This document shows positions 24,301-26,262 of a DNA stretch of 42,021 bases, piece after piece. The stretch's first letter is position 1. The number at the start of each line of letters is the position of its first letter. The notes beneath the pieces were generated by a model. It made no database searches. It saw only the letters and a program-made list of their open reading frames with translations, and had not been told where the DNA came from. The stretch is taken from positions 1-42,021 of the IMG/VR virus record IMGVR_UViG_2703718855_000003; one strand, given 5' to 3'. This stretch comes from a virus (Duplodnaviria; Heunggongvirae; Uroviricota; Caudoviricetes). The translations under genes were made by a program, and so were the position numbers.

Positions 24301-24326
24301 AAATAAAAAAGGGCCGCCAGCGGCCC
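24301..24326 (-). terminator. Intrinsic terminator immediately upstream of the lysis genes (tR'-like)
   Basis: Minus-sense GGGCCGCTGGCGGCCC hairpin followed by TTTTTTATTT, about 16 nt before the holin ribosome-binding site. Confidence 0.45.
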
Positions 24327-24409
24327 GTAAAAACACCCTGTCAAAGGCACCCGCAGATGCCTTTTGTGTGGTGTTATCTGATGTGATGTGCGCCGGGCGT
24401 GGCGCGGAT

Positions 24410-24476
24410 ATGAAAAAGGCCCGCCGGAGCGAGCCATAAAAAACTGAATAAAAAAAAACCGCCAGGTGCGGCGGTT
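24410..24476 (-). repeat. Copy 1 of a 65-bp direct repeat ending in a terminator hairpin (downstream of tRNA-Gly)
   Basis: ATGAAAAAGGCCCGCCGGAGCGAGCCATAAAAAACTGAATAAAAAAAAACCGCCAGGTGCGGCGG; minus-sense CCGCCGCACCTGGCGG followed by a T-run. Near-identical copy at 25091-25153. Confidence 0.6.
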
Positions 24477-24728
24477 AAGGATGTATTTCCGGGCTTGGCT
24501 TAGTATATGACCAATCACAGTTTTGTTTTTGTCGATGTTTACAACATCAGAATAATGCATTTAAAGTAGTAAAAATATTTGCTAATAATGCATTATTCCG
24601 ATGGTGTAAAAAATGGCACTGGAACCGCAACGAATATCACTCATTACAGAACAGGGGGCGCAAGGAACCATAAAAAACACCCTACATATATTATGTCAGT
24701 GCCTAACACAATCTCGCCTTAGTTACTG

Positions 24729-24803
24729 TTGAGCGGGCAGCGGGAATCGAACCCGCATCATCAGCTTGGAAGGCTAAGGTAATAGCCATTATACGATGCC
24801 CGC
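24729..24803 (-). tRNA. tRNA-Gly (anticodon UCC), 3' end CAA instead of CCA
   Basis: Reverse complement folds as a cloverleaf: acceptor GCGGGCA/TGCCCGC, anticodon loop CTTCCAA, T-loop TTCGATT; close to host glyT as recalled; the encoded 3' tail reads T-CAA. Confidence 0.85.
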
Positions 24804-25090
24804 ATACTGTGCTGGCCCCCGGAATAACACGAATTACCAAGAGAGCCCGCACTGGTCTTTCCGGTGGCAAACAGCACCCCTGCTAACATAAAAGATAAAC
24901 ACCTTCCAGACGCAAAAATACTAACAACTGTTTTTCAGATATCCAAAATATATTTGGTTTTTATTTTTGAAAATATGTATACATATGTATCATAAATATA
25001 CAAGCCATATCATAACCGAATTAAAAATCTTTAGTTATCTCTTTTGCCGTCTGATCACCACCCACCGGCAGCTGAGAATTCCGGCACACA

Positions 25091-25153
25091 ATGAAAAAGG
25101 CCCGCCAGGGCGAGCCATAAAAACTGAATAAAAAAACCGCCCGGGGCGGCGGC
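25091..25153 (-). repeat. Copy 2 of the 65-bp direct repeat / terminator (downstream of the degenerate tRNA-like sequence)
   Basis: ATGAAAAAGGCCCGCCAGGGCGAGCCATAAAAACTGAATAAAAAAACCGCCCGGGGCGGCGG; minus-sense hairpin followed by a T-run. Confidence 0.6.
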
Positions 25154-25519
25154 TAAAACGATAAAAGGACACAATATTATAATGATTATTGGGTTTGGGG
25201 CATCGGGTGCCTCCCGAAGTATTCCACTTTACGTGGATACTGTGGTTTCCCGCTAAACCGACTCTATAAACCACCCTCGCACTGAGGAACGCCCCAATTC
25301 ATGTTTTCCGACACAGAGATGGCGCATCACTGGTTACTCCACGCTAAATCCTGCTTCCTTTCGTGGGCAATGCGCCATTTCTGTGTCATAAAAAATACAG
25401 CACTGAGTCTGTAACCGATCTCCATTACAGAATGAGGGACGATAAAGGTATTAAAGAGATCTGTTCCTCACGAAAACCGCCAGTGCTGTAAAAACTTGTC
25501 CAAAAAACAATGAAGTTGC

Positions 25520-25590
25520 GGAGAACAGGAATCGAACCGGCATTACCAACCTAAGGCTGATGTAATAACCACTATACGATACCTGCATAT
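25520..25590 (-). pseudogene. Degenerate tRNA-like sequence (decayed copy sharing the D-arm and T-loop of the tRNA-Gly scaffold)
   Basis: Reverse complement GCAGGTATCGTATAGTGGTTATTACATCAGCCTTAGGTTGGTAATGCCGGTTCGATTCCTG... shares the D-arm and T-loop with the tRNA-Gly at 24729-24803, but acceptor and anticodon stems do not pair. Confidence 0.4.
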
Positions 25591-26107
25591 AGAGCAGGCC
25601 TCCGTAACCACAATAATGACACTGATACCGATAACAGCCCTTCATTATGATTAAACGGATGCCAGCAATGACCCGCAAGACAGCGGGTAACACCCCTGTG
25701 AACAGAAACTTGCTGCCTTTCGGGTCGAGAGTAATATTACCGATAATTTATATGACATCAAAAACTAATTAGTTTTCATATTTAAACATATGTATAAATA
25801 TGTATCAGACGCATACAATTTATGTTATTTCATCCAGACTTCTGATTTCTCACAGGAAATTGCGAAAAAAAACAACATAAAAATGAACAAATTGGGAGTA
25901 CGCTAACTCCGTTGTCGCAATAAATCACAGTAAGCTCTTCAGAAATAACAGTTCACAAGACTTACATCAACAGTAGTTTTTGTAATGATTAATGTTAACT
26001 GTAGCGTTGAAAAGAAAAGTTTTGACGAAATATGGTGAACTAACAGAGCCTAACGAATAGCCCTATTACGCCGAGCTAATAGCGCTGCCAGCTAAACTTG
26101 CATGGAA

Positions 26108-26184
26108 TGGTCCGCCACCGAGGACTCGAACCTCGCACAATCAACTTAGAAGGTTGATGCTCTATCCCGATGAGCTAGTGGCGG
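26108..26184 (-). tRNA. tRNA-Arg (anticodon UCU)
   Basis: 77-nt cloverleaf: acceptor CCGCCAC/GTGGCGG, D-arm GCTC-ATCGGGATA-GAGC, anticodon arm TCAAC-CTTCTAA-GTTGA, T-arm CGAGG-TTCGAGT-CCTCG, encoded CCA. Confidence 0.85.
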
Positions 26185-26186
26185 AA

Positions 26187-26262
26187 TGGTGGCCCTTGCT
26201 GGATTTGAACCAGCGACCTGGCGATTATGAGTCGCTCGCTCTCACCACTGAGCTAAAGGGCC
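26187..26262 (-). tRNA. tRNA with CAU anticodon (tRNA-Ile2/ileX-like; Met not excluded)
   Basis: 76-nt cloverleaf GGCCCTT...AAGGGCC-A-CCA, anticodon loop CTCATAA; closely resembles E. coli ileX as recalled; 2 nt upstream of the tRNA-Arg. Confidence 0.85.

Follow-up and report, generated by a model that had tools for sequence, protein, structure and literature searches.

Nucleotides 24301–26262 of a 42,021-nucleotide Caudoviricetes stretch (IMG/VR virus record IMGVR_UViG_2703718855_000003, positions 1 to 42,021; hereafter the window) carry a minus-strand cluster of transfer RNA (tRNA) elements. With a probability of roughly 70%, we read this cluster as the tRNA region of a defective lambdoid prophage, placed in the leader of the late operon and assembled from an ileZ/argN-type pair of tRNA genes plus two diverged alleles of a tRNA-Gly module that recombination has joined. 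Behind the tRNA of each module lies a conserved structured RNA. Its first element (D1) is a predicted four-way junction supported by covariation and new to Rfam and RefSeq annotation.

Each module is ordered as an AT-rich upstream element, a weak promoter, a leader of ~110–140 nt, tRNA-Gly(UCC), the trailer elements D1 and D2, an optional body akin to the small RNA (sRNA) STnc100 (D3) and two terminators. The upstream and downstream modules (units A and B) are collinear, with 74% identity over ~600–730 nt and three indels in a pairwise alignment; the self-similarity expected by a first-pass annotation made from the sequence alone is therefore present. Repeat searching also recovered the tRNA bodies of both units. 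The features of the cassette are:

26187–26262, minus strand: tRNA with a CAU anticodon, ileX/ileZ type (tRNA-Ile2); ARAGORN, Rfam tRNA 72.5 bits, annotated tRNA-Ile by the Prokaryotic Genome Annotation Pipeline (PGAP)
26108–26184, minus strand: tRNA-Arg(UCU), argN type; ARAGORN, Rfam tRNA 57.8 bits
25787–25818, minus strand: unit A AT-rich palindromic motif TTGTAT-N5-CTGATACATATTTATACATATG; repeat family, inverted repeat I3, kept in five diverged copies
25734–25761, minus strand: unit A candidate sigma-70 promoter TTGATG-N16-TAATAT, with an A/T-rich tract ahead of it; from the five-copy alignment
25517–25586, minus strand: unit A tRNA-Gly relic (pseudo-tRNA); Rfam tRNA 31.8 bits (gathering score 29), rejected by ARAGORN
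25390–25487, minus strand: unit A D1, predicted to be closed by AGCACUG/CAGUGCU and followed by a U-run, with a weakened P2 hairpin; covariance model R1 74.8 bits, fold
25301–25396, minus strand: unit A D2, predicted long hairpin of ~27 bp; inverted repeat I1, fold
25157–25300, minus strand: unit A D3, predicted multi-branch STnc100-like body of ~140 nt with the core UUCGGGAGGCACCCG at 25204–25218; alignment, fold
25091–25156, minus strand: unit A tandem terminators T1 (25135–25154) and T2 (25099–25116), a T-run after each; terminator scan, repeats
24973–25003, minus strand: unit B AT-rich palindromic motif; repeat search, five-copy alignment
24918–24945, minus strand: unit B candidate promoter TGGATA-N16-TAGTAT; from the five-copy alignment
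24731–24803, minus strand: unit B tRNA-Gly(UCC); ARAGORN, Rfam tRNA 61.6 bits, aligned to glyT and phage copies
24606–24703, minus strand: unit B D1, predicted closing stem GGCACUG/CAGUGCC then a U-run, beginning 29 nt after the tRNA; covariance model R1 72.2 bits, fold, covariation
24538–24610, minus strand: unit B D2, predicted long hairpin of 24 bp; inverted repeat I2, fold
24410–24478, minus strand: unit B tandem terminators T1 (24457–24476) and T2 (24418–24435), a T-run after each; terminator scan, repeats
24301–24326, minus strand: T3, a terminator-like hairpin and T-run ending ~15 nt 5' of the holin ATG; terminator scan

Two diverged alleles in tandem

The tandem most likely arose by recombination between two alleles that had already diverged, because units A and B are only 74% alike and each lies closer to other loci. 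Unit A is 99.5% identical to its counterpart in L197 and L212, where the order is Ile, Arg, unit A, holin, without a unit B (L-numbers such as L001, L003 or L205 are labels of relative loci; L197 and L212 are IMG/VR loci). It shares 87–91% identity with L003, representing prophages of pig enterotoxigenic Escherichia coli (ETEC), in which it stands alone and no Gly tRNA is called by ARAGORN. Unit B has its nearest relatives elsewhere, in L205 (85%), L217 (84%, upstream part) and L004/L005 (76–79%). The two copies are thus not each other's closest relatives.

We picture related phages recombining where they had trailer or terminator sequences in common. The upstream allele would have joined with its tRNA already dead, and the downstream tRNA would be just starting to decay (CCA to CAA). 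A second, independent stacking of modules is apparent in L128 (2574–2863) and L152, where a truncated trailer (the 3' part of D1, D2 and an STnc100-like body scoring 38.1 bits) sits 5' of an intact Thr-Gly-D1 unit.

The relic in unit A retains two parts of the Gly scaffold, the D arm and the T loop. Aligned to glyT, its anticodon loop has 5 nt, two short of the canonical length, and there are two acceptor-stem mismatches and one in the T stem; with the rejection by ARAGORN, it falls outside the canonical tRNAs. The first-pass annotation called this element degenerate, with unpaired acceptor and anticodon stems. The preserved D arm and T loop and the acceptor mismatches are borne out; the anticodon stem, however, can pair, and the fault there is the short loop. 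The L003 relic has the same lesions and is further diverged (27.1 bits, below the gathering score). Between window and L003 the relic is 84.7% identical and its flanks 78–92%, whereas intact phage tRNA-Gly genes are 96–100% identical to one another. Because its divergence lies in the range of its flanks while intact copies stay 96–100% alike, the relic appears neutral, and we assign the fourth element as a pseudogene.

Three other histories have to be set against recombination. The first-pass annotation proposed in-place tandem duplication of a promoter–tRNA–terminator unit, then decay of the redundant upstream tRNA. Part of this stands, as the Gly units are homologous and collinear over their whole length and one tRNA is dead while the other is nearly intact. 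The sequence of events does not: tRNA decay preceded the tandem, because single-unit relatives of unit A already carry the dead tRNA. The loci matching unit A at 99.5% and 87–91% lack a second Gly gene, unit B is nearer to L205 and, in its upstream part, to L217 than to unit A, and pairwise identities already point towards A and B belonging with different single-unit loci. The tandem is also rare, the whole cassette being carried by 4 of 5,426 complete genomes. Duplication in place is, on these grounds, unlikely.

Less credible still is selection for the relic as a functional, non-canonical tRNA-like element. Its 31.8 bits exceed the gathering score, the D arm and T loop are kept and the anticodon arm could still form a hairpin; set against this are the rejection by ARAGORN, an L003 homologue with a different loop length, more stem mismatches and a lower score, and an identity that follows the flanks and not the intact genes. 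We regard this as very improbable. Mobile elements often integrate at tRNA genes, and the prophage is a mosaic, which might suggest that the duplicated tRNA-like sequence is the attachment-site scar of an element integrated into tRNA-Gly. Here the anatomy contradicts the idea: the relic is a full-length tRNA and not a 3' half, the duplication spans promoter, leader, trailer and terminators, and no integrase or foreign cargo lies between the copies. We give this history almost no credence. Recombination of diverged alleles accounts for the tandem best.

The tRNA genes

All three intact tRNAs are called by ARAGORN and score above the gathering score (29) of the Rfam tRNA family (RF00005), and the fourth element is matched by the same model, so the four minus-strand tRNA-type elements recognized at first pass are all recovered and neither predictor rejects an intact one. 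The CAU tRNA and tRNA-Arg(UCU) are separated by 2 nt in the ARAGORN coordinates, again as annotated. This pair is 92.5% identical in DNA to ileZ–argN of Shiga toxin 2 (Stx2) phages, in keeping with the proposed kinship to the rare-codon tRNAs of Stx phages. The CAU tRNA matches K-12 ileX at 69 of 76 positions and contains the C4–G69 and C5–G68 pairs, which are TilS determinants in tRNA-Ile2. It is assigned to the tRNA-Ile2 type, with lysidine-type CAU reading of AUA predicted.

The ileZ-argN-argO cluster of 933W-type Stx lambdoid phages is the closest described parallel. In both loci a CAU tRNA and, within 2 nt, tRNA-Arg(UCU) are encoded on the late strand, after Q and before the lysis genes, and the pair fits the phage's excess of ATA and AGA/AGG codons. 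Unlike that cluster, the window has neither argO nor stx, its Q gene is deleted, and it adds two tRNA-Gly(UCC) modules, each of which has an upstream element and a structured trailer to itself. Codon use in the prophage, compared with flanking host genes, agrees with the expected bias: ATA is ~3 times and AGA ~7–10 times commoner, AGG is higher and GGA/GGG are raised ~1.3–1.4-fold. For Ile and Arg this agrees strongly with the customary part of phage tRNAs in codon supply; for Gly the agreement is weak.

The tRNA-Gly of unit B differs from K-12 glyT at two positions, C28U (where a U–G pair is still possible) and C75A. Its encoded 3' end reads ...GCT-CAA instead of CCA, seen both in the sequence, as first reported, and in the glyT alignment. 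The nearest phage tRNA-Gly, that of L205, is 100% identical to K-12 glyT and has CCAC where the window has CAAC. Most phage copies encode CCA, and two lineages (L129 and L217) have CUC. Because host glyT and the nearest phage copy both encode CCA, the CAA end is best explained as a recent single C-to-A change in a crippled prophage, no designed feature.

Judging by these alignments, phage tRNA-Gly(UCC) was captured from the host as a copy of glyT. The phage Thr(UGU) gene that precedes Gly in many relatives is likewise close to a host gene, matching thrU at 73 of 76 positions. The resemblance to the host thrU-tyrU-glyT-thrT operon ends there, as the phage side lacks tyrU and thrT, and D1 has no counterpart in the host operon.

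Phage T4 tRNAs without an encoded CCA require RNase BN/Z-type trimming and the host CCA-adding enzyme. By analogy, the CAA-ended tRNA-Gly could mature through 3' trimming and CCA addition, and the CUC-ended L129 and L217 alleles, likewise without an encoded CCA, would need the same repair route. The first-pass suggestion of such repair is reasonable in the light of E. coli tRNA maturation and the T4 case. The window differs from T4: here one base has changed recently, in a defective prophage, and most phage copies, like host glyT, encode CCA.

Variants of the Gly unit occur among the relatives. In L415 (4590–4789), a phage tRNA-Gly with a CCC anticodon in place of UCC is followed by D1, and downstream of this Gly-D1 unit comes a Met/Ile-Arg(UCG)-Arg(UCU) cluster. 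In L265 (1469–1550, minus strand) and L417 (795–876, plus strand), ARAGORN makes odd 82-nt calls ('tRNA-Val(aac)' and 'tRNA-Tyr(ata)') ~520 nt 3' of D1; weak Rfam matches of the transfer-messenger RNA (tmRNA) clan coincide with them. These may be another tRNA-like element, one that is absent from the window.

A four-way junction behind tRNA-Gly

The 250–360 bp between each tRNA and its terminators, passed over as spacer at first pass, emerge from folding, a covariance model and covariation as a conserved structured RNA. Both trailers fold far better than shuffled sequences (z-scores of -5.07 and -4.25) and share a common layout. D1 begins 25–34 nt 3' of tRNA-Gly and is predicted as a ~90-nt cloverleaf-shaped four-way junction, with a closing stem P1 of (G/A)GCACUG...CAGUGC(U/C) and a U-run after it. 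Folded individually, 40 of 44 distinct D1 variants form the closing stem and exactly three hairpins, the hairpin sequences being class-specific.

An initial D1 alignment was biased, as the search pattern demanded the closing stem and CUGUAAU, and RNAalifold found almost no covariation in it. Loci were re-sampled by tRNA-Gly and holin patterns, independent of D1. D1 copies of the long class escaped an nhmmer profile, whose count was too low; a regular expression, folds of single sequences and a covariance model took its place. Since MAFFT misaligned P2 and P3 between classes, pairs were counted on the model-based alignment. Across its 49 distinct sequences, 86.4% of cells pair, against 35–51% with slid partners. 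Changes on both sides are found in 18 of 29 pairs (6–11 in slid controls), and none of 500 shuffles reached the observed pairing values. The otherwise invariant P1 shows a compensatory A-U to G-C change in L415. We take D1, on this covariation, as a conserved RNA structure.

D1 occurs in 29 of 77 distinct tRNA-Gly contexts and in none of 54 distinct holin-upstream contexts without tRNA-Gly; it therefore travels with the tRNA and not with the holin. Rfam 15, searched with the window and L001, L003, L005, L128, L129, L141, L251, L265 and L417, returned no family over D1 bar spurious microRNA (miRNA) hairpin matches (E up to 0.1–5). In at least 91 complete E. coli genomes matched by BLAST, RefSeq has no feature under D1 or D2 among the matches listed. 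The pattern GCACTG...CTGTAAT...CAGTGC gave chance matches only, in unrelated phyla, when run against a genome collection; in viral contigs its matches were mixed, and BLAST kept 42 real loci (37 viral contigs plus L002–L005).

Two further trailers deserve description. In L298 (2292–3773) the module is broken by a ~1.3-kb insertion, which parts D1 from tRNA-Gly and has supplanted the 5' strand of its closing stem; this D1 scores 41.7 bits. The commonest alternative to D1 behind phage tRNA-Gly(UCC) is another conserved structured trailer, forming clusters of 26 and 9 among 147 contexts. It is represented by L001 3313–3600 (phage vB_EcoS-689R5) and ~35 other IMG/VR loci, and starts with the hairpin GTCTTTCAGTCTGCGATGATGGGAAATCCCGGAGTGACTGAAAGAC, with an internal GAUGA/GAGUGA loop. 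An Rfam search of L001 found no family over it.

D2 is a long predicted hairpin in both units. At unit B it attracts miRNA-family Rfam matches, which we discarded as spurious reflections of the hairpin. D3 is confined to unit A. Together with T1 it aligns with segments of L128, L417 and L265 that match Rfam STnc100 (RF02076) at 38.1, 28.4 and 27.6 bits, with 66% mean column identity, an invariant TTCGGGAGGCACCCG core and an invariant terminator. By the softer marks of that family, D3/T1 has the core motif, a predicted multi-branch body with a terminator and a location between Q and holin in a prophage. Unit B, unlike STnc100, keeps only the terminator end, a weak match to the 3' end of the family (19 bits, not significant).

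A 2026 preprint reports that the sRNAs STnc100, PasA, PasC and PasD, the last related to STnc100, are frequent in the gap between Q and holin of E. coli prophages (bioRxiv 10.64898/2026.05.13.724894). The PasA, PasD1 and PasD2 sequences of enteropathogenic E. coli (EPEC) E2348/69 (coordinates from PMC8550237; PasC was outside the comparison) gave only chance BLAST matches of 10–25 nt to the window, and we rejected identity with any of the three. What the window and the E2348/69 Pas regions share is only a 239-amino-acid (aa) membrane open reading frame (ORF; 26403–27122).

Among known tRNA trailers, the 3' trailer of the glyW-cysT-leuZ transcript is cleaved to give 3'ETS-leuZ, a sponge sRNA that is also named in an EPEC data set. 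D1 occupies the corresponding position, between the tRNA 3' end and an intrinsic terminator on the same predicted transcript, and by analogy tRNA 3' processing might release it. The two differ in form, D1 being a ~90-nt four-way junction and 3'ETS-leuZ a single terminator hairpin of ~50 nt.

This invites a different view of the modules, in which D1, D2 and D3 are the selected cargo: phage sRNAs acting in trans on host or phage RNAs or proteins, freed when RNase P, RNase E or RNase Z cuts a precursor headed by the tRNA, in the manner of 3'ETS-leuZ, STnc100 and Pas. With the tRNA or relic serving mainly as a processing handle, the survival of unit A beyond the loss of its tRNA would make sense. 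Consistent with this are the conserved, covarying D1 structure with a U-tail typical of Hfq- or ProQ-bound sRNAs, the resemblance of D3 to STnc100, the gap between Q and holin as a known sRNA hot spot, and the tRNA-like D arm and T loop kept by the relic. Between window and L003, moreover, D1 and D2 of unit A are 88–92% identical, against 78% for promoter and leader and 85% for the relic. Against it, the single-stranded regions that would provide a seed are not conserved between D1 classes, P2 of the unit A D1 is eroded in both dead-tRNA lineages (suggesting that the whole unit may be decaying), and there is no similarity to PasA or PasD. We regard trans-acting cargo as possible, while favouring a cassette built by recombination around codon-supplying tRNAs. 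That D1 founds a new structured phage RNA family tied to tRNA-Gly(UCC), with a role beyond plain termination, is a doubtful proposition at present; such a role could be to mimic a tRNA as decoy or handle for a host enzyme that processes or cleaves tRNAs, or to act as a regulatory RNA that the trailer yields when the tRNA matures.

Module boundaries, prophage setting and proposed working

A similar AT-rich motif ahead of each of the two Gly-type elements had been noted at first pass, in what were taken as promoter–tRNA–terminator units. The repeat is real, with 78% identity over 60 nt between 24944–25003 and 25759–25818 (repeat search), but it is not itself a -35/-10 pair; the best hexamers lie ~30–40 nt downstream and are weak. 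Five diverged copies have in common TTGTAT-N5-TGATACAnATnnATACAnAT, an A/T-rich tract and TTGATG/TTGATA/TGGATA-N16-TA(A/G)TAT. The palindrome may be a regulator site or a UP-type site.

The terminator repeat is likewise present in both units, merely similar and not 'near-identical' as first described: 24410–24478 and 25091–25156 are 83–89% identical by repeat search, and 88% over 69 nt by BLAST. Scanning for a hairpin and T-run gave 14 terminator-like sites, all on the minus strand, against 4.0 +/- 1.8 in shuffled sequences. Repeats and terminator enrichment are both beyond chance. T1, T2 and T3 are predicted intrinsic terminators, each a G+C-rich hairpin and then a T-run on the transcribed strand; T3 is kept in L003, L004 and L005. 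We discarded small trailer ORFs as genes (for example MHYSDVV... at 24560), as they run through terminators, encode protein not conserved between unit types and lie on the 3' strand of a hairpin with compensating changes. Rfam matches to miRNA, Plastid-ycf2, anti-hemB and suhB were set aside as hairpin, antisense-tRNA or terminator artefacts far below gathering scores.

A 2.2-kb query (24200–26400) is 100% identical to E. coli VG48B2 and 99.9% identical to three RM strains. By annotation, the prophage of the window occupies the Rac (ttcA) site of E. coli, with the gene order ttcA-intR-xisR-ralR-recT. The cassette is bounded by the 239-aa membrane ORF and the lysis genes (holin, holin, M15 peptidase); a holin lies directly downstream, with its ATG at 24285. 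No stx genes lie downstream of the tRNAs in the window, where the holin comes next. Intact relatives have Q, tRNAs and holin in that order, with an intact Q upstream in L003, L005 and L001. In the window the Q-type antiterminator (DUF1133 family) is an 87-bp fragment at ~27570–27660 (minus strand; L002 18745–18831). By annotation, recE is truncated and several late genes are pseudogenes, among them an Acb1-family gene directed against the cyclic oligonucleotide-based antiphage signalling system (anti-CBASS). The prophage is defective, because Q is fragmentary, recE truncated and late genes pseudogenized.

The position on the late strand, between Q/PR' and the lysis genes, matches the late-region tRNA clusters of Stx phages and upholds the first-pass view of a prophage tRNA cassette. 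The tRNA cassette as such is real, and largely ordinary phage mosaicism.

Three neighbouring genes are of separate interest. The 239-aa ORF (26403–27122, minus strand), directly upstream of the tRNAs, encodes a multi-pass membrane protein annotated as hypothetical; a homologue (~75% nucleotide identity) sits just 3' of Q in prophages PP2 and PP4 of EPEC E2348/69. A hokD-type type I toxin gene lies at 28129–28341 (minus strand), and in the relative L003 a strong Rfam sok antitoxin match (111.7 bits) stands beside its hokD. A type I restriction endonuclease is annotated in an unusual place, among baseplate and tail genes (~5641–6801, minus strand; L002 39600–40760), and may be a moron or defence gene.

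In the working we propose, the tRNA promoters would fire independently of Q, in the lysogen and during infection, supplying decoders for codons that the phage overuses. The trailer RNAs would be co-transcribed, ending at the D1 U-run or at T1/T2, and might be released as small RNAs by the cleavages of tRNA 3'-end maturation. The terminator stack (D1, T1, T2 and T3) would bar Q-independent transcription from the lysis genes, with read-through only by Q-modified polymerase coming from PR'. With Q lost, the lysis cassette of this prophage would be silent and its tRNA cassette a remnant.

Several points weigh against this picture. Which promoters are used, where transcripts end, how they are processed and how strongly the terminators act are all deduced, and the candidate -35 and -10 hexamers match at 4 of 6 positions each, below the threshold of a consensus scan. 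An old in-place duplication followed by repeated loss might conceivably lie behind the present distribution of units, and the viral-contig samples held at most ~120 loci per scan and form no census. The D1 alignment was fitted by the covariance model and so leans towards the structure modelled; the sequence of P1 hardly varies, so that it carries little information on pairing, and its invariance could equally be explained by a protein-binding or DNA-level site. The window's own copy of D3 has no Rfam STnc100 match, and its matching relatives all fall below the gathering score of 47.

Rare-codon tRNAs upstream of lysis or toxin genes are already known in lambdoid prophages. What this locus illustrates is how such cassettes would be built, with whole promoter–tRNA–trailer–terminator modules, their tRNAs copied from the host, being swapped and stacked by recombination, and decaying once the prophage is crippled. 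Its main interest lies in an undescribed structured RNA linked to tRNA-Gly, in a gap known to breed Hfq-binding sRNAs in pathogenic E. coli. D1 may be a terminator or processing structure only, or may be a released RNA with its own function. Should D1 turn out to be stable and to have an independent role, the sRNAs of prophages would gain a member linked to a tRNA, and D1 would offer a simple model for how tRNA 3' trailers turn into regulators.

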